NCBI RefSeq assembly: GCF_964204645.1
Contig: NC_134034.1
Location: 5,988,914 to 6,052,913, forward strand
Direction: 5' to 3'
DNA length: 64,000 nucleotides
Origin: Tubulanus polymorphus
Lineage: Eukaryota > Animalia > Nemertea
Shown: one piece after another, positions 2,899-44,771 of the stretch
How positions within the stretch are numbered: the stretch's first letter is position 1
How the letters are laid out: every line of letters starts with the position of its first letter
Notes under the pieces: model-generated
Told to the model about the DNA's origin: nothing
Database searches by the model: none
What the model saw: only the letters and a program-made list of their open reading frames with translations
Position numbers and translations under genes: made by a program

Positions 2899-2958
2899 AG
2901 TAATTGGAAGATGTGGGTTTCATACCAGAGGGCGAGAGGGCGAGACACCACTCATCAC
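2899..2958 (+). repeat. P1 left terminal inverted repeat
   Basis: Exact reverse complement of 19950-20009. Confidence 0.95.
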
Positions 2959-2984
2959 CACAAGTATTTTTTTTTTCCTAATAA

Positions 2985-5900
2985 ATGGGAGAGAATGAAC
3001 ACCAGCCAGAAAACAATAATGTTAATAAAAATCAATATTATTGCCAATATTGTAAAAAATACATCGATACATCTCATAAACACGACATGAAAAAACTGCA
3101 AATCATATAAAAATGTAATAGATTTTGAAACTCCAGAAAATTCCAATGAAAGAAAAGAAAGATTAAAAAATATGAATGTGGATGAAATAAAATGTGAAGT
3201 TTGTAATGATTTTATAGTAAAAAGGAATTATAATAGACATCTCGAATCACAAAAACACCACCAAAATTTGAGTAATAATGTTTTAGGAAAAGATTATTTT
3301 GACGATAAACCTCAAAAAGTAAAAAAACCAAATTCAAAAACTAAATCCATTTCAAAAAAACCTTACATGGAAAATGTTAGAAAGTTGATTCACTAGAAAT
3401 AAAAGATACAATTGAAATCTTAGAAACATTACGTAGTAAAATTGGTCCTGCAGCTATTATATTTAGATTTTTTAAAGGAACAACAATAGAAGATTATAGT
3501 AAATTTAATGAAATAATAGAAAAAATACTAGATTTGATAACAGATGTTGAATATCCAAAAATTAGTATCTCTGGGAAAGTAAGTTTTATAAAGTCAGAAG
3601 AAAAAATGAATTATAATATTCAAACACACTCTGAAGAAATAATTTCAAAAACACAAATAAAAGAGAAGTTAGAAAAAATATTTAATGAATTTAAACGTCA
3701 TATTGAAGAAAGATATTTTGAGGGTTCTGGCTTAACATTGAATGAAATTATATATTTAGATTTAAATGTTTATAATACAAAAAGAAATAAAACATCAAAA
3801 AGTAATAAAATGTTTAAAAATGCTTCAAACTTTACAACAGAAAAGGATATTAAAGCATCATCTTATATTAAATTACCATTTACAACAAAAGCAGTAATAA
3901 ATGTTCAAAATGAAGATAATAAATGTTTTCTATGGTCAATTATTAGTTGCTTACACCCAACAGAAGATATGACACATAATTTTAGAATAACAAATTACCG
4001 GAAATATGAAACATTATATAAAATTGATCAATATCCAGTAACTATAAAAATGATTCCTAAAATAGAAAAAGTTAATAATTTAAAAATAAATGTATTTGAA
4101 TTAATGCAATTACCAAAGACAAAAGGTGAAAATAGTAAAGATTATACATTGGAAGCTATATATTTAACAGAATATTATGATGATGAAAATGCTATAGATT
4201 TGTTATATTACAAAAAAGATGAAAATGAACATTATATGTGGTTAAAACAAATAGATTTATTCTTTTGAACAGAAAGTGATCATCATCGTAAAATTTATCT
4301 ATGTAGAAAATGTTTATCTAAATTTATGACTGAGAATACATTATTAAAACATAAAGAATTATGTGATAATAAAGATTTTTGTAAATTAATAATGCCAACA
4401 GAAAAAGATTATAAATTGAAATTTACTAATCATAAATTTAAGAACATTGTTCCATTTGTAATTTATGGGGATTTTGAATCGTTGAATAAAGAATTAACTG
4501 ATCAAGATAGAAAAGAAATATATAACAAAAAGCAATTATTAAAATCAATGGATAAAGGAAATGAATTAAATGAAGACACAACACAAGACCCACCAATTAC
4601 AAATACAATTAAAAAAGTTCATCAAAGAGCTGCTGCTAATGGAATTTATATGAAATCAAATTATCCTGAATTATATGAAAGTCAATATATTTCTTTTAGA
4701 GGTGAAAATGTAGTTAATAATTTTTGTGATAAAATGATTGAATTAGAAAGTGATTTTGCAAAATTATTAAACAAAAATAAAAGAATAGTTATGACAAAAG
4801 AAGATGAAATTGATTTTAATTATGCAACTCATTGTTGTTATTGTGAAAAACGTTTTTATTCATTTGATAAAAAAGTTAGAGATCATGATCATTTAAATTC
4901 AATATATCGTGGAGCTGCTCATGAAGATTGCAATTTACAAGCTAAGAAAGTTAATTTCGTACCAATATTATTTCATAATTTATCAGGCTATGATACCCAT
5001 CTATTTATAAAACAATTATCAAGGAAATTGGGTACAATAATCAAGAAATAGAAGAATATAATGCTATGAATGGTGTAAATGTAAGAAAATATGATTTTAA
5101 ACTATTAGCTAAAACATCTGAAAATTATATTTCATTTCAATTTGGTTGCATTAGATTTTTAGATTCTTATAGATTTCTAGCAAGTTCATTAGATAATTTA
5201 TCAAAAAGTTTAGTTGATAATGATTTTGTTATAACTCGATATTATTATCCAAATGAACAAGATTTTAAATTATTGAGATATAAAGGTGCAATTCCTTATT
5301 CATTTTATAAAACACACAATGATTTTAATGTAACAGAATTATTAAAATATCAATTTTATGATCAATTAAAAGAGGAGTATGTGAAAGACGAAGTGTTTAA
5401 TAGAACATTAAATATTTTGAACCATTTTAAGATGAAAAATCATGGTGAATTAGTTGATTTATATTTAAAATCAGATGTTATGATATTGGCTGACATATTT
5501 GAAAAATTTAGAGAAGTTAATTTAAATCATTTTAATGTTGATCCTTGTTATTGCTACTCTAGTCCTGGTTTAACCTGGCAATGTGGTTTAAAATATACAA
5601 ATGTAGAATTAGATTTATTAAAAGAACCAGATATGGTTTTATTATTTGAAAAATCAATTAGAGGTGGAATTAGTTGTGTTATGGGAGATAGATATTTTAA
5701 AGCAAATGATGAATATAAATTATTATATATTGACGCCAATAATTTATATGGTTGGGCAATGATGCAACCTCAACCATACAAAAATTTGATATTAACAGAA
5801 GTTGAAAATGATGATAAAACTAATTGGGAAAGCGCAATTATGAGTTTAGAAGATGAAGCACCAATTGGTTATTTCTTTGTAGTTGATTTAGAATATCCTG

Positions 5901-8045
5901 AAAATATAAAGTTTAAAACAAGAAACTTACCTTATTCCCCAGAAAATTTAACTGTAGATGATAGTTATTTTAGTGAATACCAGAAGAAAATAAAACCGAA
6001 AGATCATGTTTTTACAGAAAAATTAATACTTACTCAAAATAATAAATACAATTATATTGTTCATTATAGAATGTTAAAATTTTATCTAAAACAAGGAATG
6101 AAATTAAAGAAAGTACATAGATATATTGAATTTAATCAATCGAAGTGGTTAGAAAAATATATAGATTTCAATATTCAACAGAGAACCATATCAAAAACAG
6201 ATTTTGAAAAAGATTTCTTCAAATTAATGAATAATAGTTTTTATGGAAAAACATGTGAAAATATTAGAAATATAAATGATATTGAATTAGTAAATAATTC
6301 TGAAAGATTAAGACATTTACAATCAAGCCCTAGACATTTAGGAAATAAAAGATTTGAAGATTATTTAACAGCAGTTAAATTAAAAAGAACTTCAATGAAA
6401 TTTAATAAACCAATATTTATAGGTTCAACTGTTTTAGAAATATCAAAATTATTAATGTATGATTTTTATTATAATTTTTTACAACCACTTTTTGGGGAAA
6501 AGCATATTGAAATATTATATTTTGATTCTGTAACAGCTGACACCCCAATATTATTAAAATGTAATGATAAAATATTGATAAGAAGAATTTCAGAAATAAT
6601 TCCAAAACAAAATGAATGTTATATTTCATATGGTGAAAAAGAATTAATACAAATAAATGGTTTAATGGATGTTTGGACAAGAAATGGATGGAAAAAATTA
6701 AAGAATATTATTAGGCATAAAACAAATAAGAAAATCTATAGAGTTAGAACTAAATTAGGGTTCGTTGATGTTACAGAAGATCATAGTTTAATTAAACGAA
6801 ATGGCGATGAAATAAAACCAACTGATATAAAAATTGGAGATGAATTATTACATAAAAGATTTTTCCAAAGAATGAATCATATGTCATTTGATGAAATTAT
6901 TGATAATATTTATAATATAGAACCCGAAACATTAGAAGAAAAAGAATATTTTATCAAAGGATTTTTCATGGGTGATGGTTCAGCAGGTGTGGATAATTAT
7001 GTTTGGGGTAATAAATACTGTTGGTATTTATGCAATCAAGATTTAAAATTATTAGAAAGAATTAAGAAATTCTGTGAAGAAGTTTATTCACATAAAACAT
7101 TTAGAATCATGGATCATATGAAATCATTAGCAGTTTATAGAATACTTGTAAATAATCCTAAAGATTTTGCTATAAAATATAATGATGAATTCTATATTCA
7201 TGCAATAGTGAAAGTAATACTTCAACTAAAGAAAAGATAGTTCCAGATTATGTATAAATGCAAAAAATAATTTAAGAAAATGGTTCTTCATTGGATTCTA
7301 TGCAGCAGATCGTGCTAAAAAATTTACAAAGGATAAAAGATAACCTTTGCTCAAAAAGGAAAAGTTGCTATATCAGGATTGAATATATTATGCAATTCAT
7401 TAGGTTTTAATATGGATATTGGATTGATTAAATCTAAACCAAATTGCTTTAATCTAAGCCACACAGAAAAAGATTTAACTGAAGAAGTTAAAGATTTATT
7501 TGAAATATATAACCCATTAGATTATGTTTATGATTTATCAACTGAAGATGGTACATTTAACAGTGGATTTCCATTAATTTGCTTCAATACTGACGGTTAC
7601 ATACTAAAAATCAAGACAAATGATATAACAAAAGACTTAAAAACATTAAAACATTATTTTGATTTAAGCAATTATCCCAAAGATCATGAACTATTTAGCA
7701 ATGATAATAAAAAGATTCCTGGTAAGTTTAAAGATGAATTAGGGGGTGATGAAATGATTGAATTTGTTGGGATAAGAAGTAAAATGTATAGTTACAGAAC
7801 AAAAGATCATGAAGCTAAAAAGTTAAAAGGAATAACAAAACATGTGGTTGATAAACATATAGAATTTCAAGATTATATAAAGTGTTTATATAACTCAATT
7901 GTAATGAAACACAAAATGAATTGTTTAAGATCAGAAGATCACGAGATGTACATTAATGAAGTTGAAAAAAACTAGTTTGAATCCATTTGATGATAAAAGG
8001 CATATTTTAGATGATGGTATAAAAATATTACCTTATGGTTATTAA
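2985..8045 (+). pseudogene. polB: Protein-primed family B DNA polymerase (N-terminal zinc fingers, OTU-like region, EndoVII/HNH-like finger, exonuclease, polymerase), intein-containing, disrupted
   Basis: NEDNKCFLWSI, IYGDFES, RDHDHL..YRGAAH..CN, FHNLSGYD, FLDSYRF, YIDANNLYG, KLMNNSFYGK, YFD|intein|TDG; several stops and frameshifts. Confidence 0.95.
6527..7588 (+). mobile_element. Intein with LAGLIDADG homing endonuclease in PolB motif C (frameshifted)
   Basis: Block A SVTADTPILL, block B VTEDHSL, LAGLIDADG-like FIKGFFMGDG and WFFIGFYAAD, block F/G YVYDLSTEDGTF...ICFN|T; removal restores YFD-TD as in P2/P3. Confidence 0.95.
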
Positions 8046-9356
8046 AACATAAAATCAATATCATCATACTCGAAATTACTATTGGCTTCTTCATTTTCAT
8101 TTAATTGTTTAGGTTCTTCTTCCATTTCATTTTTCTTATTTAAATAAAGTTCTATCTTGTTCCACATTTCATCTCGCTCTCTTTGTTTCTTTTTGTTTGT
8201 TAATTCATCAAATGGAATTATAATATCTATGTTTAAATAATTTACAATCTTATTTAAAAAGAATTCATAATTTATTGAATCTGTTATTCTATTTTCCAAA
8301 TGATACATTAATATTTGTTTGAATATTTTTTTTATATTTTTCATATCTTCTTCTGTTAATTTAGGTTTTTCATAATAATCGTTAAATAATAAATATAAAT
8401 ACATTTTCTTTTCTTTTGTGTTAAATGTTGACGGAATAATTGTTTTTATAATATCTTTTTTAGTTATTTCACCATTTTTATTTTCTATTATTTTCATTTT
8501 TTCAAGCCATTGCATATATTCTGGTGTATGATCTTCTATAGAAAATGTTTTAAAAATTTCATCTAGATAATTTAATTTTGGATCTATGAGAAAATTTCTA
8601 GTTTTTTCTTCACTCCATAAATTCTTTTGCCATCCACATTCATTACAAAATAACACAGTACCTTCTTGCCTTAAGGTCGCGTAACTACATTGTGGACATT
8701 TTCGTTTATAATTTATTGGTAATAGATCTTCATTAAGCTCTTGGTATTTTCTTACGTTTTCTTTACGTTTTATTGTTCTATTATGTAGATTTGAATTACT
8801 TGTAATAATCAATTTACAATATTTACAATAATATATTTTTCTTGTTAATTAATTATATTGTTTTTCTAACTTTTCAACTGTTTCTTTATTATCTGGTAAC
8901 GTTTTCTCATATTTTATTTTTTCTAATAGATTATTTTTTCTTTCATTGAATTCAGTTTCAAATTTATTAGAAATTTTATCTATATGTGCTTTACGAAATT
9001 GATGATTCTCCCAATCTTCTATATTTTCAGGGCTATATTTTATTCGACAAGGCTCACAGAAATGATCTTTTATATTATCCTTATCATAGAATAAGAAAGG
9101 TCTTTTCCAAATAATTTCAGGTTCAACTTCAACAGAATTACTATTACTTTCATCACTATCAACATTAGCCGTTGCGCCATTAATTTTACACTTCTCTGAA
9201 TGTTTTTTAACATGATTTCTTGATAATTAATTTATTACATTTTGGGCAGTTTATTTTAGGGGGTTTATAATTTTCATCATGTTTTTTCATATGTCGAGCC
9301 ATATTACTTTTTCTTAGAAGTTTACCACAAATTTCGCATGCTATCTTCTCATCCAT
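8042..9356 (-). pseudogene. Zinc-finger / VLTF3-like (poxvirus A2-type late transcription factor) gene, 5' part frameshifted
   Basis: Start at 9356 MDEKIACEICGK..RHMKKH (C2H2); ORF 8042-8812 has CPQC..CNECG zinc ribbon, SINYEFFLNKIVNYL and KKQRERDEMWNKI resembling the VLTF3 C-terminus. Confidence 0.65.
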
Positions 9357-9423
9357 TTATTAAGGAAAAATTTTATCAAAATTAATTTTTAGTGATGAGC
9401 GGTAATTTTTTATGTTATAAATA

Positions 9424-10211
9424 ATGGTAGAATTAAAAGAATACAGAATATTTGTTGATTCTAGAAAACTTACAAATTATAAATCACATAATTTATTAGT
9501 TCAATTAGATAGAGAATTTAAGAATTATGTAGATTTAAAATTAGTAAATATAAGTTTATGTAACTCATTTTACAATATATCGGATAAAACTGACGAACAT
9601 AGAACCTTTTTTATTTATGAAAGACGTAATAGAAAAATAGCTTATCAACTTATGATTACACCAGGATTATATAATTTAGAAACATTAGCGAAAGAAATAA
9701 ATAGAAAACTCGGATTATGTTAGGTAGTGATTCTAAATTTAATATTAAATTCATAAAAAGTGAGAGCTCTAATTTTATTAGAGTAAAGTTTGATGATGAA
9801 AGTGTTGATGATTCATTGATGATAAGAAAACATGCTTACATGGTAAAAAAACCTTTTTCTAAACTGTTAGGAATTCTTTCAGATACTTTTATTTACGGAA
9901 ACACATATGGTATATCAAATATAATACCTTTTACACATTTTTATATTTATTGAAATTTAATTGATCCTACAAAAACATTCGAAGCAACTAAAGAAACAAT
10001 TTGTAATTCTAGTATATTAAATATTTTACCATTAAAAAATGTTAAACAATTTGGAACGCAAATAAATTATAATTTAGCTGAATGTGATTTTAAACCTTGT
10101 ATTCCACATTTCAATAATTTCAAATTAGAAATAAGAAATCATAATGGTTATTTAATTGATTTGAATAACTTTCCTGTAATTTATGAATTAATTATAAGAT
10201 GTAGAGAGTAA
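9424..10211 (+). pseudogene. Minor capsid (penton, single jelly-roll) protein, disrupted
   Basis: IFVDS, NSFYNIS, PGLYNLE.L...IN, LEIRNHNG.LIDLN motifs; intact homolog at 34053-34808. Confidence 0.75.
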
Positions 10212-10227
10212 TTTTTTCATTATATAA

Positions 10228-10587
10228 ATGAATATAACTGTTGGACCGAGTATATGTTTTGGGTTTGATTTTAAACATGAGAAAGAAATGAAATTTAACA
10301 TTAATGATGTAATTACACAAATCAAAAATATTGTATTTTCTAATGAAACATCATTTGAGTATGAAACAACAATAGATAAAGAAACTTTAAATGTAGAAAA
10401 GATTACTAATTTAATTAGAGAATCTTTAAGATTTTATGAATTAGATGAAGATTTTATCATAGATGATATTAAAAACATATTAACCGAAATATATGATAAT
10501 CATAAAAGTAGTAATGAAATAAATGTTGAATTATTCATCACTAAGTTGACTAAATATTTTGAAGATAGTAATTTTTTTGATAAATAA
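10228..10587 (+). CDS. Conserved acidic hypothetical Polinton protein
   Basis: 119-aa ORF, homologs at the same position in P2 and P3. Confidence 0.7.
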   Translation: MNITVGPSICFGFDFKHEKEMKFNINDVITQIKNIVFSNETSFEYETTIDKETLNVEKITNLIRESLRFYELDEDFIIDDIKNILTEIYDNHKSSNEINVELFITKLTKYFEDSNFFDK

Positions 10588-10809
10588 ATGAGTGATGATA
10601 AGTGGATAATAACTGGATTATATAATGGCTCATTATTATCAGTTGGAACTGTTGGTTATTCAATGGTATTAAAAAAAGTATTTAAAATGGGAAGTGTTAA
10701 TGTTGATAGATTTGATATAAATGATATCTTAAAATTAACATTAGCAGTTACTTTATCTAATTTAACTATTGATTATTTAGAAAAACAAAAATATATTCCT
10801 CCTATATAA
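10588..10809 (+). CDS. Small hydrophobic putative virion membrane protein
   Basis: 73 aa, two hydrophobic segments, conserved in P2/P3. Confidence 0.7.
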   Translation: MSDDKWIITGLYNGSLLSVGTVGYSMVLKKVFKMGSVNVDRFDINDILKLTLAVTLSNLTIDYLEKQKYIPPI

Positions 10810-10833
10810 ATGCGTAATTATTTTGCTAAATAA

Positions 10834-11256
10834 ATGGCTTCTGCAATTATAACTATTATAGGATCGGCAATTGTTAACGCTTTAGCATTTACTGGTGGTG
10901 GATATTTATTTAAACATATTGATAAAAATAGTTCATTAGGAGAACAAAGAAGACATAATTTAGCGTTAGAAAAATTAAATAAAGCAGAGGAAGAATATAG
11001 AGAAAAGAGACAAAACTATATGGATTATATTAACAAAGAATTATATGATCAGAATATTTCACACAGAGATTTTCAATCAGTTGATGATGCAATGAGTTTA
11101 TATAACGCGGTAACCAATAAAGAAAAATTACATCTATACAAACCTAAATTATCAGATTATTATACCCCAAGTAAAGAACAACAGAAATATGAAATAATTT
11201 GGATTTTAGGTGGAACAGTTATTGTTATATTTGTAGCATATAAATTTACTAATTAG
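10834..11256 (+). CDS. Putative membrane protein (N- and C-terminal hydrophobic helices, central coiled coil)
   Basis: MASAIITIIGSAIVNALAFTGG...RRHNLALEK...IIWILGGTVIVIFV; intact in all three elements. Confidence 0.8.
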   Translation: MASAIITIIGSAIVNALAFTGGGYLFKHIDKNSSLGEQRRHNLALEKLNKAEEEYREKRQNYMDYINKELYDQNISHRDFQSVDDAMSLYNAVTNKEKLHLYKPKLSDYYTPSKEQQKYEIIWILGGTVIVIFVAYKFTN

Positions 11257-11275
11257 TAATTTTTTTTCTAAATAA

Positions 11276-11710
11276 ATGGAAGATAAAGTTGATAATATTG
11301 ATATTATTCCTCATGATATGAATAAAACTAAATTAAAAATATATTTAGAAAAACAAATATTAGAATTTGAAAATGATTTAAAAGTTAAAAAGAAAAAATA
11401 TTTAAAAAGTAAAATTATATATTATTTGATTATTAGTGGTTCGGTTACAATAAGTTCTGTAATAACATTTCTAGCAATATTCAGTCCATTAACACCTTTA
11501 GCTATATCAATTGGTGTGTTAGGATTATCATCAAGTGTATTAACTGGTATAAGTTCAAAATTAAATATAAAAAGTAATAAAGAAAAAATTAAAACTAATA
11601 TAAAAGAAATTAATAAATTAAAGAATACACTAGATTATATAATAAGTTTAAATGGTCATATAACAGTTGAAGAACAAGATAAATTATTAAAAGAATTAAT
11701 AAATTATTAA
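11276..11710 (+). CDS. Two-TM membrane protein with coiled-coil flanks
   Basis: Hydrophobic hairpin IIYYLIISGSVTISSVITFLAIF...LAISIGVLGLSSSVL; homologs in P2/P3. Confidence 0.75.
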   Translation: MEDKVDNIDIIPHDMNKTKLKIYLEKQILEFENDLKVKKKKYLKSKIIYYLIISGSVTISSVITFLAIFSPLTPLAISIGVLGLSSSVLTGISSKLNIKSNKEKIKTNIKEINKLKNTLDYIISLNGHITVEEQDKLLKELINY

Positions 11711-11726
11711 TTTTTTAGTTATATAA

Positions 11727-13115
11727 ATGGCAGATAGTTTTCAAAAAGCTTTCCAATATAATAAATCAATTAAATATAATATTCCAGCAATAGATTTTAA
11801 TAAAGATATTTCATATAGAAATGAAGTTTTAAATTCATTAATTGATTTAGAAATTTATGTTACTGAAACTAATAATTTTAATGCAAAGATGGAAAATATA
11901 TTTCATGTATATTTAATTAATTTTAAAAAATTGAAAGATGAAAAACAATGGTTATTAAAATCTAATATGAAGTATTGGCAGAACCAATTAAATTTTGCTG
12001 TTTATTGTGCAATAACAGGTTGTGGAATTAGTTGTAATGATCATTTGAATAATTCTAAATATAAATTAATTCAAAGTTTATTTAGATTTTATACATACTT
12101 TCAAATCAGAATAATATTAAATGAATTAGAGTGCGCTTTACCAGGATCTAGATATTTTAAAGAATTAGATAATAATATTAATTTATCAAAGTTTTATAGA
12201 ATTTGTAATGAATTTAATATAGATATAAATAATTCTGATTTTAGAACAAAAATTGGAACAATAAGATCACTTCCTTGCCCTAAAAAGATTGCAGAATATT
12301 GTGCACTTCCCATACCATCTAATAGTTTTTATAATATCTATAGTAATAAATTAGGTTATGGTAAAATAGAAACTAAGGATTTAGAAACATTAAATTTCAA
12401 TAAATTACCGAAATTTTATGATAATTTAAAACAAGAAAACAATAATGGTTGGGTTTATTTCATTTAAGAAAATAATGAAGGTTTTACAAAATCAGGTATA
12501 CAAAGAATAAATCAATCTATTAGAACTTATTTGATATGTATTTTAGGTGCGCAAGTTGAAACAAGATCCCCAATGATTGGAAATTTAAATACATCATTCG
12601 ATACACAAAAACAATTTAAAGTATTATTTGAAGATTCAATTCATGATGATAAAAATAGATCGATTCCAGAAAACATTGTAAGCTATCAAAATTATTTAGA
12701 TAAATCACATATTAGATTAAATTATTGTATAGGTCCTAATCAATTAATTATTTCTAATGATTTAGTATTAAAGATGGGAAACATAATTGGTTAAAATAAT
12801 CTAATTAAAACTGCAACAATAAATAATTCATTTGGATTAAATGATATAAGTAAAAAGATTATTACTGCTCCAAAATTAATGGAAGGCGAAAAAAATAAAA
12901 AACATATTCAATCAACAGAAACTAAAACTAAGAATATTAAATTAAATAATGATTCTAAAATAAAAGATTACAATACATCAGAAGATATAAAAACTGATAA
13001 GATTCAACATGAAATAATTAAACTAAATGATGATAATAAATCCCATGAAAATACTAAATTAGCTTTAACTTGTATAGGAATTGTAATCGGAGGAATATTA
13101 TATTTTAAATTTTAA
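11727..13115 (+). pseudogene. Conserved Polinton protein of unknown function with C-terminal TM anchor, disrupted by stops
   Basis: WQNQLNFAVYCA.TGCGIS motif; three in-frame pieces; homologs at 36328-37653 and 60233-61675. Confidence 0.75.
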
Positions 13116-13131
13116 TTTTTTTATTATATAA

Positions 13132-14545
13132 ATGGATGTAGAAGGTGGAGAAGATATTGGAATGGATCCTTTTGATGAACCTGGTATAAGTGATGAACAA
13201 CCACCTGATTTTGATGAAACAAGTTTTAATGACGGTAATGAGCCAGAATATAGTAATAATTTGAATATGCCTGATTATATTAAAAATGCCGAATCACAAT
13301 TAAATCCTGAAAATTGAAACCCAGATTTAGTAAAACAAGATTTAGATAATTTAAACAAAATACCCAAATAAGAACGTATAATTGAAAATTCTAAACTTAA
13401 TATAAATGATGAAGACGTTGGACTTTTAGCATATCAATTAAAATTTTTAGATAATGGTAAATGTTATTATCGTTTGAAAGGTGATTATTATATTGATATC
13501 ACTTCTAAAAATAATAAAAAAATATTAGCGGAATCAACTTCGAAAAGTTTAAAACCAGATAAAATTAAAATAATAAGTAATAGTAATGAAATAACTGATG
13601 TTACACAAAAAGAAATAGATGATAATATAGACGCATTTAAACAAAGATATAATGAATTATTTGAAATAATCAAAAAGAAATCAGACACAGAAACAACTTC
13701 TGAACCGAATATAACTTCCAAAACTAGTAAACTTAAATCAAATAAAGTTCCAATTGAAAAACTTTTACCGAATGGATTACTTGATGCAACAGATCAAGAA
13801 TTAGAAGATTTAGATATATTTTCTGATAAAGCAATTAGAGAAATTATTAGTATAAGACATGCATCTGATAAAATTGCGCATGATAAAAGTATAAGAGATT
13901 TTAAAATTCGAACTTTAGAAAAAGACAGAACTGATAAAATTAAAGAAATAGAACAATTAAAATTAGATAGAGATAATAAAGTTATTGAAGAAATTGAATT
14001 TAAAAAAAGAAATGCATATTTAGAAAAAGAAATTGATGATATAGAATATAACATAGAATTACAAAAAGAATAATATTAGAATAATATTAATAGATTAAAA
14101 GTTATTTTTAAAGATTTGTTAATAAAACCAAATTCTGAAATATCATTAAAAGATAGAATAAAATCATTATTTAAATTAGAAGGAATAACAATTCTTTCAA
14201 TTCTAACAGCTGTAACTATGTTATTTACAACAATTGGTTTAGCAATATCAAATGCATTAAAATCTACGCCTACACCCAATAAACCGGATAAACCCCCGAA
14301 TGATAATAATTCTATACAAGATAAAGTTAAGGATGGTTTTAAAAAATTAGCAAAATATTTATGGGAACTATCTAAAAAATCTGCTGCAGCTTTACCAGGA
14401 GTAATTGCATCATTGTTGGTTTTATATTGAAATGCAGGAAACATTATTAACTTTGCTGCTGAACATATTATTTTATTTTTAATTACAGTTGTAAGTGCTA
14501 TTATTTTTGGGTTAGTGAATATGATATCAAAAGGATATCAAGAAA
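13132..14545 (+). pseudogene. Large acidic/coiled-coil protein with C-terminal hydrophobic helices, disrupted
   Basis: Colinear with intact 476-aa ORF 61638-63068; 3' end approximate. Confidence 0.75.
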
Positions 14546-14586
14546 AAAATAATAAAAAATGAATAATTAATTTTTTTGTTAAATAA

Positions 14587-15829
14587 ATGAGTGGGAGTTA
14601 TATAAGTCCTTCTAAGAATTCTAGAATATCTAATGCTATTAAAGCAGAAAGATCACCTCATATAATTACTCATAACCCTTCTAATATTAATCCTGATGAA
14701 ACTTTATATGTTAGAATCCCTAGATTAACACAAAATACTTTTTATGTTCCAAATAGTATTTATTTATCAGCCGATATAAATTGGTCATGATAATAATTAT
14801 GTTGTTGATAATGTTAGGAGATATTTGATTAAAAAATTAACTATAAAGATTGGTCCAGAAACAGTTTTCTCATTAGATGATTATAATTTATTTATGCATT
14901 ATAAAGATTTATGGTTAACTAAAGAAAATAGAAATAATATGATATTTCAGGGTATTCAATCGGAAAACCATAATAAATTAAGATCAGGAGCTAATGACGC
15001 AATAGTAACTCGTGCCGCAGATAATTTGATTAAAAAGATTTATGGAAGCAAATATAAAATTCCATTAGAGTTTGAATTGATAAATAATAATGCACCTTTA
15101 TATAAATATGTAATTCAAGAAGATATTATATTTGAGATAACATTTGCTCCTGTAAATGAAATTGTATTATCTAGCGTTGTTAAAGATATGGGTTATAAAT
15201 TATCGAATATATGTTTAGAATATGATACAGTAACTAATGAAAATATTGCTAGCACAATTCAAACTCAATACAATCAAGGATTTTCATTATTATATGATTA
15301 TATTGATAAATTTAAAACTGTAACTATTAATGCAAATGATGAAATAATTAATGAAAATATTAACTTCCCAAGAAGATCTATTAAAGGTATATTAATATTT
15401 TTTACCATTGCAACGTATTCTAATGGAGCAATAAAGGTAGATAATTATTATAATCCTGAAATAACAAAAGTTGAAATAACTATCGAAGGAATAGCAAATA
15501 AAATATTTTGTCAAGGAATGAGAATGATTGATCAGTGGCCAGAAATTAGAAAACATTTTATGAATGAAAAAGTAAAATCATTTGAAAATTGTAATATTAA
15601 TCAAATTGATTATTTTACCGGCAATAAATATGCATTATGGTTAGATTTTAGAACAACAGAGGATAATTCATTACATGGTTCTGGGAAAAAACTACAAAAT
15701 ACTAAAGATGGAATACAATTATTCATGACAAAGAAAAAAGGAAGCCTAAATTTCAAAATGCACACTTATATTATATCTGACGCGCAATTAAATATTGTAA
15801 ATTCACAATTAGATAGTATTCAATATTAG
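14587..15829 (+). pseudogene. Major capsid protein (double jelly-roll type), frameshifted near 14780-14820
   Basis: ~410 codons, beta-rich, position before integrase/ATPase, highly conserved in P0/P2/P3. Confidence 0.8.
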
Positions 15830-15859
15830 AAATATAAAGTTAAAATTAAGGATATATAA

Positions 15860-16987
15860 ATGGGTGGTAAAAAAACTCCTAATACTAAAGAACAATATTT
15901 AAGAAATTTATATTACAACCCTGAGAGTTCGGTTGCTTATTCTTCTACCAAAAATATATGGAGTAAAGTAAAACAAGATAAATTAGATAAGATAATCCCA
16001 CAAAATTTAGTTAAATATAAAGATATAAATGAATTTATGTTAGAACAACCAACATATACAACACATAAAAAAATTATTAGAAAATATAAAACTCGTAAAA
16101 CTATGGTAAGTTATATAGATCAACAGTGGCAAGGAGATTTAATTGATATGAAAAATGTTAAGAAAGATAATGATGATTATTGGTGGTTATTGAATATAAT
16201 TGATATTTTTAGTCGTTATGTATGGAGTTTCCCACTTTATAGAAAAGATGCTGTACAAACATCAAATGTTTTAAGAAAATTTCTTTCGGATGATAAACTA
16301 AAACCAGAAAAAATACAATTTGATGATGGAAAAGAATTTGATAATTCACTTGTTCATGAACTCTTAGATAATCATAATATTAAATATTTTTCAACAAAAT
16401 CGGATAAAAAAGCAGCAGTTGTTGAACGATTTAATAGAACATTAAGAACAAGTGTGTGGAAATATTTTACAGCAAATAATACTTTTAAATGGATTGATGT
16501 TTTACCAAAATTGATAGAAGGATATAATAATTCTTATCATTCTTCTATTGGAATGAAACCTATCGATGCTAGAAAACCTGAAAATGCTGAAATTGTTTGG
16601 AATAATTTATATGGAGCATTTCTTGTAGATGATTTTGGTGAACCTATATTTAAAGTTGGTCAAAATGTTAGAATTTCTAAGTATAAAAAGATATTTGACA
16701 AAGGATACGATCGAAATTTTACTAGGGAAATATATAAAATAAAAAAGGTAATAACAACAAAACCATATGTCTATAAATTAGAAGATTTAGATGGTGAAGA
16801 AGTTGATGGCTACTTTTACGAAGAAGAATTAAGTTTAACTACTGAAAATCTAGAACAAGAATATAAAATTGAAAAAGTATTAAAAACAAAAACTATTAAA
16901 AGAAAAAAATATTCTTTAGTAAAATGGGTTGGATGGCCAGATAAATTTAATGAATGGATATTATCAAGTAAAATTAAAAATATATAA
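15860..16987 (+). CDS. Retroviral-like (rve) DDE integrase with C-terminal chromodomain
   Basis: QWQGDLIDM, IDIFSRY, QFDDGKEF, VERFNRTL, YNNSYHSSIGMKP; chromo YKIEKVL...LVKWVGWPDKFNEWI; intact ORF. Confidence 0.95.
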   Translation: MGGKKTPNTKEQYLRNLYYNPESSVAYSSTKNIWSKVKQDKLDKIIPQNLVKYKDINEFMLEQPTYTTHKKIIRKYKTRKTMVSYIDQQWQGDLIDMKNVKKDNDDYWWLLNIIDIFSRYVWSFPLYRKDAVQTSNVLRKFLSDDKLKPEKIQFDDGKEFDNSLVHELLDNHNIKYFSTKSDKKAAVVERFNRTLRTSVWKYFTANNTFKWIDVLPKLIEGYNNSYHSSIGMKPIDARKPENAEIVWNNLYGAFLVDDFGEPIFKVGQNVRISKYKKIFDKGYDRNFTREIYKIKKVITTKPYVYKLEDLDGEEVDGYFYEEELSLTTENLEQEYKIEKVLKTKTIKRKKYSLVKWVGWPDKFNEWILSSKIKNI

Positions 16988-17596
16988 ATGAATAAAGAAT
17001 TATTTATATTTGAGCCTCATAATATGTTAATTTCTGGCGTAACAAATTGTGGAAAAACTTATTTTATATTAAATTTATTAGAAACTGTTTATGAAAACTA
17101 TTTTGATAATATAGTATTATTTTGTCCAACATATGAATTTAATCAAACTTATGATAGAAATATTACTAAAAATAATAAATTTATTATATTAGATCCTAAA
17201 ACAGTAAAAGAAAATTTAGATATTTGTATAAAAATAGCAATTGATATTTATAAAGGATCAAATACATTATTTATCATAGATGATTGCGCAAATTTACATG
17301 ATTCAAAAGTTAGAGAAAGTGAGTTATGCTATTTAGCTTTTTCTGGTAGACATTTTGGGATAACAACTTGGGTTTTAAATCAAAAATATAATTCAATTGT
17401 TAAAGACTTTAGGGAGAATATAAGATTTCTAGTTTTATTCTACAATCAAGATAGAAAATCGATGAAAAATGCACTTGAGGAAAATGATATTATTCCACAT
17501 GATTTACATAATGAATATATGGATAAGTTGAAAAATATTAAAAGATCAAAATTACTGTTTAGATTACAACACCCATTTAAATATGAATTTATTTAA
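16988..17596 (+). CDS. A32/FtsK-like genome packaging ATPase
   Basis: Walker A GVTNCGKT, Walker B FIIDD, GRH and Q..R.N motifs; intact. Confidence 0.92.
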   Translation: MNKELFIFEPHNMLISGVTNCGKTYFILNLLETVYENYFDNIVLFCPTYEFNQTYDRNITKNNKFIILDPKTVKENLDICIKIAIDIYKGSNTLFIIDDCANLHDSKVRESELCYLAFSGRHFGITTWVLNQKYNSIVKDFRENIRFLVLFYNQDRKSMKNALEENDIIPHDLHNEYMDKLKNIKRSKLLFRLQHPFKYEFI

Positions 17597-17599
17597 ATT

Positions 17600-17868
17600 C
17601 AACTAGCTTGTTAATCTAGTTGAATTCTAGTTACATTCTAGTTGAATTCTAGTTATTGGTATTGGAACAAAAATCAACTAGATTTAACAATATTTTAACT
17701 AGCTTGTTAATCTAGTTTAATTCTAGTTACATTCTAGTTGAATTCTAGTTGTTAGTAGTTGGAACAAAAATCAACTAGATTTAACAAGAAATAAACAAAA
17801 ACAACAATATTTCAACTAGCTTGTTAATCTAGTTGAATTCTAGTTACATTCTAGTTGAATTCTAGTTG
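17600..17868. repeat. Three ~55-bp units of CTAG/GAATTC-rich non-coding repeat
   Basis: aactagcttgttaatctagttgaattctagttacattctagttgaattctagtt at ~17602, ~17697, ~17814. Confidence 0.85.
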
Positions 17869-17900
17869 CAACAACACAATTAATTTTTTTTGTTATATAA

Positions 17901-18488
17901 ATGGGAGGTGAAAAGAAAATAAAATCTAAAAATGGTGATGTTCCAATTGAAAAAACTTTAGATGATTTAGGAATAACAGAAAACAAATTAATTCCAGATG
18001 ATGGTGCTTTAAATAATGTTACAACAAATAATAATTATGAATATTATCTTTATTGTAAACATCAATTAGAAATATTAATAGCATCTGGAAAATGTAAAAA
18101 TTTTGTCGGTAAAAATTTAACTTATAATGAACTAGATTCAATGAAATCAGATGAAATTATTAGATTATTTAAGATTTATGAAGCCGCGAGAACAGCTAGA
18201 ATTAATGACGCGATATCAGAAAATGTAGTAAAAGGTTATAGTAAATTATGTAATTATACACTACCAATTGATGATGAAAATAGATTATATTCCGATTTAA
18301 AAAATGACTATTTAGTTATGACTGAATTAAATAAATGGATTGGATATTCATCATTTCAATTAGGCGGATTTATGACATTATTATCAACTGGGGTTATAAC
18401 ATTTTCAAATATTGAAAGTAAAAATATTTCTATAATAAATGAGCGAGGTGAAAGAAGTGAAGGAATTAACTGTGAAGAAAAAACCTAG
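17901..18488 (+). CDS. Conserved hypothetical Polinton protein (gene X)
   Basis: 195 aa; homolog at 41853-42455 in P2. Confidence 0.8.
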   Translation: MGGEKKIKSKNGDVPIEKTLDDLGITENKLIPDDGALNNVTTNNNYEYYLYCKHQLEILIASGKCKNFVGKNLTYNELDSMKSDEIIRLFKIYEAARTARINDAISENVVKGYSKLCNYTLPIDDENRLYSDLKNDYLVMTELNKWIGYSSFQLGGFMTLLSTGVITFSNIESKNISIINERGERSEGINCEEKT

Positions 18489-18773
18489 ATCACAGAAACA
18501 AATTGAATGGTCTCGGCAATTAGGAATTAAATCACAAGAATATAAAAAGCTGTAAAAGAAAAAATAAGTAATAAAAATGTTAATAAAAATAGTGAAAATA
18601 TTGTTATTTCTACTCCTTCTAATGATAGAATATTTGATAAATGTCTATATTTTACAGTTGGATTTGTAATTGTATTCATTTTGATTGGGTGTAATTGGTA
18701 TAAGAAATCAAATAAAATTCATGATATTAATAATTCTGAAACAACTGCTATCAAAAATGAAAATAATTCTTAA
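18439..18773 (+). pseudogene. Small basic protein with TM segment (gene Y), frameshifted
   Basis: TAAATG start; KKPRSQKQIEWSRQLG matches KKARSEKQIKWARELG in P2 (41860, minus). Confidence 0.6.
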
Positions 18774-18996
18774 ATTCCAAAATTGACAATAAAAAAATGG
18801 ATTAATATTTTAGAAAAAAAGGCAAAAAAAATAATTTTTTTTAATCAATTGAATATTAATTGAATATCTCACTACTTTTGTCTATCACTGTGTGGGTGCC
18901 GTTTATGGCACCATCTACGCGGAGCAATTAAATTGTCCAGATAAGTCATTTCGGATTCTAGATATTCATTATTTTTATTAATTTATTTTTTTAAAT

Positions 18997-19326
18997 TTAA
19001 TCAACAATTTCTAAATCATGATGTCCATCTTCATTTTTTCCATGATATAATATTATTTTAAATCCTTCTAAATCTTTTAATTCCTCTGTCCTCAATGAAA
19101 CCCATTTATCAGGTAAAAATACTTTAAATTCTCGCGATGTACTAACCTTACAGTAGCTTAAATTAGCTGATACTTTCTCTCCATATTTAGTTTTTATCTT
19201 TTCTAATTTCAATATTTTATGTTCAATTTCTTTTGTAACATCAACTAACTTTTTTATTTCAAATTGTTTTTTTGCTGGTTTTATTCTGTTATTTATTGTT
19301 GCTAAGAATGCTTTTCTATCTCCCAT
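18997..19326 (-). CDS. Small protein, possibly OB-fold ssDNA-binding
   Basis: KKL..., TKYGEKV, FKVFLPDK pattern shared with 57602-57943; fold is inference. Confidence 0.55.
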   Translation of the reverse strand: MGDRKAFLATINNRIKPAKKQFEIKKLVDVTKEIEHKILKLEKIKTKYGEKVSANLSYCKVSTSREFKVFLPDKWVSLRTEELKDLEGFKIILYHGKNEDGHHDLEIVD

Positions 19327-19348
19327 TTATTAGGAAAAAGAATTACTC

Positions 19349-19949
19349 GTGGTGATGAGCGGGGATTACTTCCCCTTGTATATAACAAACACCCTATTAA
19401 CCGTTGTCACCCAAGCCTCACAGCATCTATTTATCCGGGTACAGTTAACACACGCGCAGCTGTTGTTACGCGCACTCACTGTTTATGTGTGTCACAATTT
19501 TACTGCGTAATATTTCTAAAATTTCAATTGTATCTTTTATTTCTAGTGAATCAATATAATTTCTAACATTTTCCATGTAAGGTTTATTTGATTTATCAAT
19601 GTATTTTTTACAATATGGACAATGATATTGATTTTCATTAACATCAATTTGTTCTGTCTTATTCTCTTCCATTTATACGGAAACAAAATTATTTGTGGTG
19701 ATGAGTGGGGATTACTTCCCCTTGTATATAACAAGCACGCTATTAACCGTTCTCACCAAAGCCTCACAGCATCTATTTATCTGGGTACAGTTGACACGCA
19801 ATCACTGTACTACAGTAATAGCACACGCGTTAATAACCGTTCTCAGTAGAGACTCACTGTATCGGTCTATCCACGCGCAGCTGTTGTTACGCGCACTCAC
19901 TGTATATGTGTGTCACAGAGCAATCGTCCGTTCTCACTAGAGCCTAGCT
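19349..19949. repeat. Subterminal direct repeats enclosing a deleted inverted copy of the polB 5' end (ORF 19466-19672)
   Basis: ~19349-19497 repeats ~19695-19917; the ORF matches the P1 PolB N-terminus. Confidence 0.8.
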
Positions 19950-20009
19950 GTGATGAGTGGTGTCTCGCCCTCTCGCCCTCTGGTATGAAACCCACATCTT
20001 CCAATTACT
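19950..20009 (-). repeat. P1 right terminal inverted repeat
   Basis: Reverse complement of 2899-2958, followed by TSD TTTATT. Confidence 0.95.
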
Positions 20010-20334
20010 TTTATTTAATTTCAATTGTTCTAATTCTTCATTTGCTTCAGATAATTCTTTTTCTACAGTGATACTTTTAGAAAATCTCATCTTAATATGA
20101 GCAAATTCAAGTTTCAGTATTATCTAAAACACTAATTATCTCTTCTTCTAAATCGGCTATTTTTTCAATTTGTTTTTCTTATACTAATTGTCATTCACTT
20201 GAATCACTACTTATTTATTGAATAACTTATTTCGATGTTTTTGGTTTTGAAGATCTTAATTCATCTTATTTATCTGCAAACTCTTCCATTTCTGGATCAA
20301 CAAAAGTAGGATTTAGATTTGGATTTTTAAATGG
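20010..20334 (-). pseudogene. Old Polinton fragment P0, part 2: middle of coiled-coil gene
   Basis: Joins 2898 across the TSD to give EELEQLKLNKDLQVIDE, matching P2 EELKQLELNKNLQVIEE. Confidence 0.85.
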
Positions 20335-21147
<813 letters not shown>

Positions 21148-29134: not shown

Positions 29135-29613
29135 AGTAATAGGCGTAATGGGCTTTCAAGCCAAAGGTCGAACGGTCGAGTGAGTAAAAAATGAAAAACA
29201 TGAAAATAATTACAATTTCTACTTGAATTACTCGCGAAACTCATAAAAATGAAAAATAAATTCTCACACGCTCTAATTTATTTTTCATTTTTATGAGTTT
29301 CACTCCTAATTCAAGTAGAAATTGTAATTATTTTCATGTTTTTCATTTTTTACTCACTCGCCCCTTCAACCTTTAACCTGAAAGCCTATTATCCCTATTA
29401 CTCTTAAAATAATCATATACGTGAATAACATTCAAATTGACAGATTATTCAATATCAAAGTGTAAGCTCTTATAGAATAAATATAAAAGTATATATTTAC
29501 AACATTATTTCAATATTCATATTTGTATGAGTTAGATTTTAAACATTAAAAGTGTTAGTAAAGTGTGATTGAAATAATACATGATATAAATCATTGAACT
29601 TCTAAAATCAATT
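29135..29613 (+). repeat. P2 left TIR containing a 268-bp imperfect palindrome (29135-29402)
   Basis: Inverted match to ~44772-45227; internal arms fold back around a loop at ~29262-29275. Confidence 0.93.
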
Positions 29614-29636
29614 TTAATAAAAAATTTAGTATTAAA

Positions 29637-32600
29637 ATGGAAGCAAATAAGTACTACTGTCCAACATGTAATATCAATATAGATAAATCCCAAAAAGCAA
29701 GGCACAATAAAACTAAAACACATTTAGAGAATAAATTGAAACTAGAATATAAAGATGATATATTAGAATCTAAATTAGATGAATTAAAGAATGAAAAAGA
29801 AATATATAAATGTGATACATGTAATCAATCATTCAGTGATAAAAGATATTATAATAAACATTTAAAATCTAAAAGTCATATTAGAAATAAGAATAATGAT
29901 ATTTTAGGTGAAGATTATTTTGATTAAGATAATGATAAGAAACAGAAGACAATTAAAAGCATAAAAAGTAAATTAAACAATAAAAGACCATACATGGAAG
30001 ATGTAAGAAATTATATTAATTCATTAGATAATAAAAAAGATATAGAGATAACCGAAGCATTTAAAAGTGATATTGGCCCAGCAGCTATCGAGTTTAAATT
30101 TCATGAAGGAAAAACATTAGAAGAAAATAAAAAACATTTAGAAAATATGAAAAATATTATAAAAATAATTACTGATGTTGATTACCCTAAAATTAGTATA
30201 TCTTCTAAAGTTAAATTCATAAAATCTGAAGATAAACCAATATATAATATAAATTCTCATTCACAACATATTATATCTAAACAACATATAGATGATGAAT
30301 TAGATAAATGTTATAATGAAGTAAAAACTAAAATAGAAGAGAAATATTTTGAAGGATCTGGTTTAATATTTGATGAAATAATATTTATGACTTTACATGT
30401 GTATAACACAAAATATAATAAGTTAACTAAATCAAAACAAATAGATGAAAATAATGTATCATATTATAAAGAACAAGATATTGAAGCATCGAGTTATATT
30501 AAACTACCATTTAAAACTAATGCTGTAATAAATGTACAAAATGAAGATGATAAATGTTTTCTATGGGCTATAACAAGTTGTTTACACCCAGTTGAAGATT
30601 ATAAACAACATAGTTTTAGATTAACTCATCATAAACCATTTGAAAATAGTTATAAGATAGATAAGTATCCTGTTAGAATTAAAAACGTCCCAAAGATAGA
30701 AAGAGATAATAATTTAAGAATAAATGTATTTGATTTAATCAAATTACCAAATACAAAAGGTAACAATATAAAACATTATACATTAGAACCTTTATATCTA
30801 TCAAAAGATTATGATTCAAACGATGTTATAGATATATCATATTATGAGAATCATTATATGTGGATTAAACAAATAGATTTATTTTTTAAATCAGAAAATG
30901 ATCACCATAAAATATATCTATGTAGAAAATGTTTACATAAATTCAGTAATGAAAGTACATTATTAAATCATAAACAATTATGTGAAAATCATGATAATTG
31001 TAAATTAGTTTTACCAAATGAAAAGGATAAAATATTAGAATTCAAAAAATATGATTACAAAAATAAAGTTCCATTTGTAATATATGGAGATTTTGAATCA
31101 TTAAATAAAGAATTAACTGATCAAGATAGAAAAGAAATATATTATAAAAGATAGAAATTAAATTCTAATGAAAATGATTTTTCAGATGAACCACCAAAAA
31201 CAAATACAATTAAAAAGATTCATCAATCAGCTGCAGCTTTCGGGTTATATATTAAATCTGATTATCCAGAACTAATTAAAAGTGAATATTATCATTATAG
31301 AAATGAAAATGTTATCAATCATTTTTGTGACTTATTAATTGAATATGAAATAAGATTTAGTAAATTATTGAATACAAATATAGAAATTATAATGACAGAA
31401 GAAGATAAAGAAAAATTTGCGTTTGCAGATAAATGTTATTATTGTGAAAAGATATTTAATTATAAAGATAAAAAGTAAGAGACCATGATCATTTGAATGG
31501 AAAGTTTAGAGGCGCTGCACATAAGAATTGTAACTTACAAGCTAAGAAAATTAATTTTGTACCAGTTATATTTCATAATCTATCAGGATATGATGCACAT
31601 TTATTCATCAAACAGTTATGCCATAAAATAGAAGAAATTAATAATGAAATAGAAAGATTAAATTCAAATAGATCAAAAGATAAAATACCAACTTATAAAT
31701 TTAGAATGTTAGCTAAAACATCTGAGAATTATATATCATTCCAATTTAGTTGCCTAAGATTTATAGATTCATATAGATTTTTAAATAGTTCATTAGATAA
31801 CTTATCAAAATCATTAGTTGATGATGAATTAAAAATATTAAAACAACACTATGCAAATAATGATGATTTGCAATTAATGAGATATAAAGGAGCAATTCCA
31901 TATTCATTTTATAAATCACATAATGATTTTAATATAACTGAATCAAAAAATGAATATGTTAAAGATGAAGTATATAATAGAACATTGAATATTTGGAATC
32001 ATTTCAAAATAACAAATCATGGACAATTAGTAGATTTATATTTAAAATCAGATGTATTATTATTATCGGATATATTCGAAAGGTTTAGAGATGTAAACCT
32101 AAAATATTTTAACATTGATCCTTGTCATTGTTATTCATCACCAGGTTTAACATGGGATTGTGGATTAAAATTTACAGATATAAAAATGGATTTGTTAACA
32201 AATATAGATCAATTATCATTATTTGAAAAATCTATAAGAGGAGGAGTTTCAGGTGTATTAGGTGATAGATATTTCAATGTAAATGATAAACCTGGTTATT
32301 ATAAAAGTTATTATATATAGATGCAAATAATTTGTATGGTTGGGTAATGATGGAACCACAACCTTATCGAGTATTTGAAATAAGTGAAGTTTTACAGAAT
32401 GAAAATAATGATAAATTTGATTGGAAGAAAAGAATTCTAGATATTGCAGATGATTCAGATACTGGTTACTTCTTTGTTGTAGATTTAGAATATCCTGAAC
32501 ATATTAAATTTAAATCTAGAAATCTAGCATACTGTCCCGAACATAAAACTGTAACTCATGAAGAATTATCAAATTACCAAAAAAGAATTAAACCCGAAAA

Positions 32601-33653
32601 TCATATTCATACAGAAAAGTTAATGGTAACTCAAGAAGATAAATATAATTATGTAGTACATTACAGAATGTTAAAGTTTTATTTGAGTCAAGGAATGATT
32701 CTAAAAAAAGTACATAGATATATTTCATTTAGTCAATCTAAGTGGTTAGAAAAATATATAGATTTTAACACCAAACAGAGAAATGAAGCTAAAACCGATT
32801 TTAAGAAAGATTTCTTCAAGTTAATGAACAATGCATTCTATGGTAACACTTGTGAAAATATTAGAAATAGAAATGATATTGAGTTAGTTAGTAATGGTAA
32901 AAGAATTAGACATTTACAAACATATCCTAAGTTCATTGGTAACAGAATATTTGATGAAAATTTAGCCGCAGTTAAGATGAGAAGAACATCAATGAAATTT
33001 AATAAACCAATCTATGTTGGCGCTTCAGTTTTAGAATTATCAAAATTACTAATGTATGAATTCTATTATAATGTATTACAACCACTTTTTCGAGAAAAAC
33101 ATATAGAAATATTATATTTTGATACTGACAGTTACATATTAAAGATAAAAACTGATAACATAACTGATGATTTAAAAACATTAAAACATCATTTTGATTT
33201 CAGTAATTATCCTAAAGATCATGAATTGTTTAGCAATGATAATAAAAAAGTTCCCGGTAAATTCAAAGATGAATTAGGTGGTGAAGAAATGATTGAATTC
33301 ATCGGTATTAGATCTAAAATGTCTTCATATAAAACTAGAGAACATGAAGCTAAAAAGTTAAAAGGAATAACCAAAAGTGTAGTAGAAAAGAATATTCATT
33401 TCAAAGATTACATCAATTGTATATTCAATGAAGAAGTTAGAAAACATAAGATGAGATGTTTAAGATCTGAAGATCATGAAATGTTTATTGAAGAAATTGA
33501 AAAATAAGTCTAAACCCATTTGATGATAAAAGATATATTTTAGATGATGGAATTCATACAGTTGCTTATGGTTGTAATTCAGATGAATATTTAAAATTTA
33601 AAAGAGAAGAAACAAAAGAGAACGAGATAATGAAAAGAATTCTAACGTGTTAA
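29637..33653 (+). pseudogene. polB: Protein-primed PolB, intein-free, disrupted
   Basis: Same motifs as P1; ILYFDTDSY uninterrupted at ~33110-33135; several stops and frameshifts. Confidence 0.95.
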
Positions 33654-33682
33654 TCAAATTTTAATAAAAATATGTTATTAAA

Positions 33683-34035
33683 ATGGAGAGTAAACAAGCG
33701 GAAGTGAGAACAACAAATCATTTCTAGATAGAATAAAAGATACTTCAAATATCAAATCAGTAGATTAAAAATTCAAAAAGTTAACAGAATTAACAATTCA
33801 TAAGAAATATTTAATTACAAATATTGAAACAATTACTAACAAATATGGAGATAAATTAGTTATACACTTAGAATATGAAGGATTAAAAGGAAATACATAT
33901 AAATTCAGAACATATTTACCAGATAGATTTCATAGATTATCAAGTGAAGATTTAGAAGAATTATGTTCTGGAGATTTCTATTTCGTAAACAAAGGTTAGA
34001 ATGAAAAAGGGCACCATGAAATAGATTTCGAATAA
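33683..34035 (+). pseudogene. Small putative ssDNA-binding protein, with stops
   Basis: Near-identical to 57602-57955. Confidence 0.6.
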
Positions 34036-34052
34036 GAAAATATGTAAAATAA

Positions 34053-34808: not shown

Positions 34809-34825
34809 TTTTTTCACTATATAAA

Positions 34826-36311: not shown

Positions 36312-36327
36312 TTTTTTAGTTATATAA

Positions 36328-37653: not shown

Positions 37654-37669
37654 TTTTTTTATTATGTAA

Positions 37670-39388: not shown

Positions 39389-39409
39389 TTAATTTTTTTT
39401 GTTAAATAA

Positions 39410-40657: not shown

Positions 40658-40689
40658 AATTTTAACTTTAATAAAAATTTATATAATAA

Positions 40690-41486: not shown

Positions 41487-41493
41487 CTTATTT

Positions 41494-44750: not shown

Positions 44751-44771
44751 TTATTATACATATTTTTTCCT

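Follow-up and report, generated by a model that had tools for sequence, protein, structure and literature searches.

A decayed pol-c intein, likely of giant-virus origin, in the protein-primed DNA polymerase of a Polinton

The window, the whole stretch of 64,000 nucleotides analysed here, carries a genuine LAGLIDADG intein of the pol-c type. Its host protein, a protein-primed family B DNA polymerase (pPolB), belongs to a class new for such inteins, and the kingdom of the host genome is likely new as well. In our view the insert is probably a defective copy of a pol-c intein of full size; giant-virus DNA polymerases are its likely source, and homing among Polinton polymerase genes is its predicted mode of spread. 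The range of pol-c alleles is thereby extended over the deepest divide within the family B polymerases.

The insert and its host element

The 1062 nt insert at positions 6527–7588 (forward strand) splits the polymerase gene of the first Polinton of the window, P1, between the Asp and the Thr of catalytic motif C. Six-frame translation gave ILYFD|SVTADTP at the left junction and CFN|TDGY at the right one, and the insert length and residue strings of the preliminary description were confirmed by translation and alignment. The flanks of the insert align base for base with empty sites at 33123/33124 in the element P2 and at 57042/57043 in P3, whose polymerase genes read ILYFDTDSY without interruption in six-frame translation. 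The coding region was delimited from translation, homology, an intein model and the tree described below. The N-terminal Hint (splicing) region covers 6527 to approximately 6860, with Ser1 at 6527 and the block-B motif TEDH at 6773–6784. This N-terminal piece passed the TIGR01445 intein_Nterm model (32.6 bits for a cut-off of 24.5) and the window piece matched PI-PkoII (E = 3.5e-5), while the Pfam Intein_splicing model PF14890 gave E = 8e-5, below its cut-off. The first LAGLIDADG motif, FIKGFFMGDG, at 6950–6979, is conserved in the family alignment. The second one, at 7284–7313 (FFIGFYAAD at 7284–7310), was recognised from the translation and the reads; it is out of frame here and its last codon departs from the family motif. 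The C-terminal Hint region, at 7526–7588, consists of block F (VYDLST, 7526–7543) and of block G ending with Asn (7586–7588), and bears an FN[STC]GFPL signature. Thr+1, the first residue after the insert, starts the C-terminal extein.

The class-1 intein residues Ser1, block-B TxxH, block-F Asp, terminal Asn and Thr+1 are thus all present. Judged by its sequence, this in-frame insertion, lacking in the homologues P2, P3 and P0127, is a LAGLIDADG intein with both motifs, placed at the pol-c site (FD|TD) in a protein-primed polymerase, and the insertion site, the motifs and the TIGR01445 match bear out the earlier claim of a LAGLIDADG intein in the PolB active site. The endonuclease model PF14528 scored above its cut-off in the relatives P0138, P0005 and P0258. 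At an E-value of at most 0.001, 238 proteins were homologous to the N-terminal piece, the best being 60% identical over the whole query. Block B reads TxDH in 175 of the 178 full-size family members. Two features singled out earlier are ordinary in this family. The penultimate residue is Phe, the usual but non-obligatory His being absent; of the 234 distinct members of the family, only 94 have His at this position, 115 have Lys and 5 have Phe. The change from TDS to TDG after the insert had been taken as a sign of decay, but nine topoisomerase inteins of the family are also followed by TDG, as are the archaeal pol-c sites (PMC549080).

P1 is a Polinton/Maverick element with a pPolB, an integrase, an ATPase, terminal inverted repeats and a 6-bp target-site duplication. 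It is integrated, complete and 17.1 kb long (2899–20009, forward strand). Its 60-bp termini (2899–2958 and 19950–20009) are 100% identical in inverted orientation, and the duplication lies at 2893–2898 and 20010–20015. The N-terminal extein (3091–6526) was defined by PF03175 (E = 6.6e-15), a weak Endonuclease_7 match, tblastn frames against P0001 and the list of open reading frames, and is broken near 3390, 4268 and 5040–5085. The C-terminal extein (7589–8042), traced by translation, reads and comparison with P0001, has a frame break near 7965. Further along the same strand, a 349-aa open reading frame common to P1–P3 (14780–15826) is, by its position and size, probably the major capsid protein. 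It is followed by an rve integrase with a chromodomain (15860–16984; PF00665, E = 2.8e-10) and by an A32-like packaging ATPase (16988–17593; PF04665, E = 1.1e-12). The candidate capsid and protease open reading frames had no match in Pfam, the NCBIfam capsid models or PHROG.

The empty site of P2 is at 33118–33132, in an element that extends from 29135 to 45227 with a 6-bp target duplication and a polymerase of a different subtype; that of P3 is at 57037–57051, in an element which starts at about 53300 and runs off the window. Both were located on the forward strand by alignment. The middle part of the three elements is shared at about 87–92% identity. In 150-nt windows of the polymerase module, P1 is about 66–84% identical to P2 and P3 (about 76% overall), whereas P2 and P3 are 90–99% identical to each other. 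On the integrase side P1 and P2/P3 share only 68–74% identity and P2 is inverted relative to P1. Since both modules are divergent, P2 and P3 represent another replication-integration subtype on a shared structural core. The preliminary description was therefore right that the neighbouring sites are empty, but they are not alleles of P1. In 64 kb, three Polintons thus combine a common core of about 90% identity with two distinct sets of polymerase, terminal repeats and integrase; module swapping has been described for this virus group (10.64898/2026.10.13.758929).

Other features of the locus were observed. One or more zinc-finger open reading frames specific to P1 (8045–9226, reverse strand) lie between the polymerase and the shared core; P2 and P3 lack them. 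On both sides, at 2064–2900 and 20009–20936, P1 is bordered by fragments of a further Polinton core, in part inverted and 75–87% identical to P1–P3, so that P1 seems to have been inserted into an older Polinton. A near-perfect palindrome of 176 nt (20972–21147) adjoins these fragments. The surrounding DNA contains non-LTR retrotransposons. Among named sequences, their relatives are a protein from a limpet and contigs deposited as clam symbionts; on this basis the host is probably an animal, perhaps a lophotrochozoan.

Reads, copies and decay

The run X6 consists of raw reads with the same species label as the best-matching sample, from a different study, and about 12% of it was used. The summed depth was 238–340 upstream of the insert, 182–246 over 6577–7218, 92–146 over 7219–7646 and 191–321 downstream. 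At the empty P2-type site it was 272–491 with no dip at the site; these depths, obtained at likeness thresholds of 90 for the filled and 92 for the empty form, only show that both forms are abundant. No joint skipping 6527–7588 was present among the 15 joints listed of 17 in X6, hence the P1-type copies appear mostly filled. Among the 6 loose ends listed of 59, no filled P2-type read or intein-like end was found.

An assembly chimera between a Polinton and contaminating giant-virus DNA is extremely improbable. It could draw on the right junction, which is spanned by a single listed contig (X4 record 15) with an overlap of only 21 letters. The raw-read depth is continuous, with no pile-up of X6 read ends across the insert, and the 5′ two-thirds of the insert are covered nearly as deeply as the flanks. 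The left junction is spanned by contigs from two samples. The GC content of the insert (25%) is that of its flanks (23–26%), and independent records have identical junctions, among them the fragment P0201, which is 74% identical to the window across the right junction.

The window copy of the intein is dead. Two compensating frameshifts had been reported between about 7200 and 7340; translation and reads gave three frame breaks in the region 7210–7334 (near 7210, 7254 and 7334), and they are specific to the window copy. X6 reads lacking these breaks numbered 149 of 182, 114 of 158 and 43 of 52, respectively. At position 7311, where the second LAGLIDADG motif departs from that of the family, the X6 reads disagree with the window copy in 99 of 100 cases. 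The intein is multi-copy in the species and its other copies are mostly unbroken. The polymerase gene of P1 has seven breaks in total, three of them inside the insert, a distribution expected by chance (binomial p = 0.17); a decay specific to the intein was therefore discarded and the decay is element-wide. Together with the integration of the element between target duplications, the breaks agree with the earlier description of an endogenised, decayed copy. The X6 depth was halved over 7326–7646, the 3′ third of the intein, which suggests either that many copies are damaged there or that the intein has a second subtype of greater divergence.

The intein family and its origin

The best match, P0001, is an unbroken pPolB of 1693 aa with the intein at YGD|TDS. 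P0003/P0138–140, P0004, P0005, P0143 and L051 are pPolBs filled at the identical site, and P0153, P0174 and P0201 are close fragments with an intein there. Sequence comparison thus places the intein at this one site in no fewer than seven lineages of Polinton polymerases. A profile search recovered many further fragments on long ENA contigs, including clusters of 55 and 41 members, which look like decaying chromosomal copies in other eukaryotes. Scans for related loci gave one weak locus with the window piece and none with P0001.

Two cases bear on the mobility of the intein. The 90% cluster of P0004 has 121 members, of which 15 were listed; in it, P0127 is empty and P0004, P0124 and P0129 are filled. 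Upstream of the site, the empty and filled members show 100% identity along 140 aa, and downstream of it 99.4–100% along 160 aa, which makes this a true filled/empty dimorphism, by a very recent gain or a precise loss. P0005 belongs to a far polymerase class. Its exteins are 19–32% and its intein 41–49% identical to those of the other hosts of the clade, and its end branch measures 2.92 in the extein tree versus 0.78 in the intein tree. These values point to a lateral spread of the intein between Polinton polymerase classes, although the topology does not force this transfer (p-AU 0.30). In the four whole pPolB inteins, the endonuclease region is 41–51% identical, as compared to 40–65% and 39–53% for the splicing region. 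The conservation of the endonuclease is similar to that of the Hint region, which is what continued homing would predict.

The fold was predicted for P0138, a close relative 46% identical to the window piece. Computed from a 47-row alignment, the model (pLDDT 89.8, pTM 0.90) corresponds to a Hint domain with a homing endonuclease. Foldseek placed endonuclease-bearing inteins at the top (7qsu with E = 3e-17, 2cw7, 1dq3, PI-SceI), and the endonuclease part matched I-DmoI with a TMt of about 0.72. Among viral models, fragments of giant-virus PolB ranked first. A fold from a 6-row alignment was set aside because of a pLDDT of 58 in the Hint region.

Most homologues are inteins of RNA-primed PolBs at YGD|TDS, and a few are in type II topoisomerases at D|TDG. 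The FN[STC]G[FST]PL ending shared with the window was present in 58 public loci, which a BLAST test assigned to 44 RNA-primed PolBs and one pPolB, leaving 13 unclassified. Among the signature-bearing loci, 13 of the 15 viral contigs were labelled GVMAG. A search of 50% representatives revealed no pPolB host among the inteins excisable from the best 150 matches (89 new ones, in 85 RNA-primed PolBs and four topoisomerases). A tree of 69 inteins combined that of the window with 68 others, which remained after the thinning of a set of 93 full-size sequences. In this tree the eight pPolB rows with the C-terminal signature formed one clade (100/100) inside a starred set of 27 rows, the other 19 being RNA-primed PolB inteins. 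An 85-row tree that included representatives of the whole library kept the pPolB clade but not its exact sister; the giant-virus sister (98/71 in the 69-row tree) was replaced by other neighbours. The trees were drawn with midpoint or outgroup placement, without an independent root, and the direction of transfer consequently rests on nesting and numbers.

The kinship with inteins of RNA-primed giant-virus PolBs, which had been proposed, is borne out by these trees. The accompanying proposal of homing from an RNA-primed large-virus PolB into a pPolB stands as far as this kinship goes, but the jump was not into P1 itself, the intein being already widespread in Polinton polymerases. It is very unlikely that the intein is instead ancient in protein-primed polymerases or passed from Polintons to giant viruses. 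Its presence in both deep polymerase classes (P0005 versus the rest) and the missing independent root would be compatible with such a history, but the pPolB clade has few members and branches from within a large and varied array of RNA-primed PolB inteins, and the identity of inteins across classes is far above that of the active-site exteins.

There is about an even chance that the intein entered Polinton polymerases on several independent occasions, with different giant viruses as sources, and not in a single invasion. The pPolB fragment P0163, which has a different C-terminal signature, grouped away from the main clade, with the RNA-primed PolB inteins P0022 and P0028 (100/96) and, in the 85-row tree, with P0306 (94). 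However, P0163 is a lone fragment from a contig of 1.7 kb, a tree uniting all nine pPolB rows in one clade was not rejected (p-AU 0.125), and the main clade of eight rows had a single origin in every tree.

Two observations concern other hosts of the family. The inteins at D|TDG of type II topoisomerases (P0006, P0059, P0073, P0077, P0084, P0092, P0111, P0115) formed one clade (100/99) among PolB inteins, which on sequence grounds would mean that the intein switched to another host gene with a similar motif. P0287–P0297 are RNA-primed PolBs with two or three inteins each and lengths of up to 2400 aa.

Homing and comparison with known systems

We propose the following scheme. In unbroken elements, the precursor would splice through a Ser1 acyl shift, transesterification by Thr+1 and Asn cyclisation; in known inteins, the acyl shift at Ser1 is helped by the block-B Thr and His and is followed by Thr+1 attack and Asn cyclisation (PMC7765530). 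Splicing would rebuild the polymerase active site, which is needed for the replication of the element. Because the insert separates the catalytic DTD residues, unbroken elements would have to splice to replicate and the intein would be shielded from purging. Once freed, the endonuclease would cut motif C where it is still empty, in Polintons that reside in or infect the same cell; wherever filled and empty elements meet in this way, repair would copy the intein into the cut site. The main Polinton clade would go back to a single ancient transfer from a giant virus, with a later spread from Polinton to Polinton, including across the two polymerase classes.

In the genome studied here, the empty P2-type copies of the other subtype are still abundant and homing has therefore not swept them. 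No co-conversion tract was visible at the P1 flanks, where the synonymous difference was 0.16 just upstream and 0.38 just downstream versus 0.20–0.58 elsewhere. In approximately 30% of the X6 reads, the Thr-Asp-Ser that directly follows the empty site of P2 (33126–33131) is encoded by other codons, including a switch of serine codon family. This recoding was not distinguishable from the background divergence of a third subtype. It is no evidence of an escape or immunity of the target site, as equally dense synonymous clusters exist elsewhere (33255–33267) and both types of Ser codon flank filled giant-virus sites (24 and 10 of 34).

It is possible, though somewhat doubtful, that in this species the intein still splices but no longer homes. 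It would have been fixed long ago in the P1-type polymerase and have multiplied only through Polinton replication and integration, its endonuclease being blind to the P2-type site. The apparently near-complete filling of P1-type copies beside P2-type copies that look empty agrees with this, as does the intein tree, which roughly tracks the extein tree for the window and P0001, and the halved depth in the 3′ third could reflect divergent or damaged endonuclease ends. The near-identical filled and empty alleles around P0127 in another data set, the endonuclease motifs kept across lineages and the majority of unbroken reads argue against it. A loss of homing would be limited to this species and does not conflict with homing elsewhere in the family.

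Returning to the homing scheme, we consider the odds slightly in favour of a broader interpretation. A giant-virus intein lineage would have crossed into protein-primed polymerases and would today be an active homing element of animal-integrated Polintons, providing the first true splicing and homing inteins in animal nuclear genomes. These would cut and convert rival copies in the germ line and record ancestors which shared cells with giant viruses as virophages do. A multi-copy and mostly unbroken intein family in animal Polintons implies that giant viruses and Polintons have exchanged DNA within the same cell and bears on whether animal Polintons depend on large DNA viruses or descend from their parasites. 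The existence of filled and empty alleles in single genomes makes homing measurable in an animal lineage.

Eukaryotic inteins have been reported from fungi, algae, some protists and large DNA viruses (PMC5784728), and giant-virus-type polymerases with inteins are found on algal and protist nuclear scaffolds (PMC10710043). In their accessible text, surveys place eukaryotic inteins neither in animals nor in protein-primed polymerases (PMC5784728, PMC10710043, PMC7765530), and the accessible parts of four other articles mention inteins only in passing (PMC12220804, PMC3671162, PMC9939771, PMC5718144). In the passages covered, from the main text of openly accessible articles, no Hint-domain intein was found in a Polinton, an adintovirus, a protein-primed polymerase or an animal genome.

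Several known systems can be compared. The HNH and VSR domains of Polinton pPolB2 (10.1101/2023.08.22.554363; PMC11071308) are likewise endonucleases inside Polinton polymerases, but no Hint domain is described for them in the accessible text, whereas the Polinton intein is complete and located in the active site. Insertions of the HNH/VSR type in pPolBs were suggested to stem from intein invasions (PMC11071308); the accessible text of the work cited for this suggestion (10.1101/2023.08.22.554363) never uses the words "intein" or "hint". The viral-like DNA polymerases of Klebsormidium, Tetrabaena and a labyrinthulid and the nuclear inteins of Anaeramoeba (PMC10710043) are also virus-borne inteins in eukaryotic nuclear genomes. 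Their hosts are giant-virus-type polymerases or host genes of algae and protists, and the accessible text does not mention animal, metazoa, polinton or maverick. PI-PkoII (2cw7), PI-PfuI (1dq3), TliVMA (7qsu) and PI-SceI have in common with the predicted fold of P0138 a Hint domain and a two-domain LAGLIDADG endonuclease. The archaeal pol-c inteins occupy the homologous site, followed by TDG (PMC549080). Archaeal and solved endonuclease inteins are only 12–20% identical to the Polinton intein and have other hosts and, except for the pol-c members, other sites.

The closest known systems are the pol-c inteins of giant viruses. The 351 aa intein of Mimivirus R322 (PMC549080) has the same site (motif C, YGD|TDS), Ser1, Asn and Thr+1, the block-B Thr and His, two LAGLIDADG motifs and a similar size, and the sister sequences of the Polinton inteins lie in GVMAG contigs. 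The Polinton inteins differ from them in their flanks, which read FD|, MD|, SD| and LD| besides GD|, and in their host, here the protein-primed PolB of a 17-kb integrating Polinton with many chromosomal copies in what is likely an animal.
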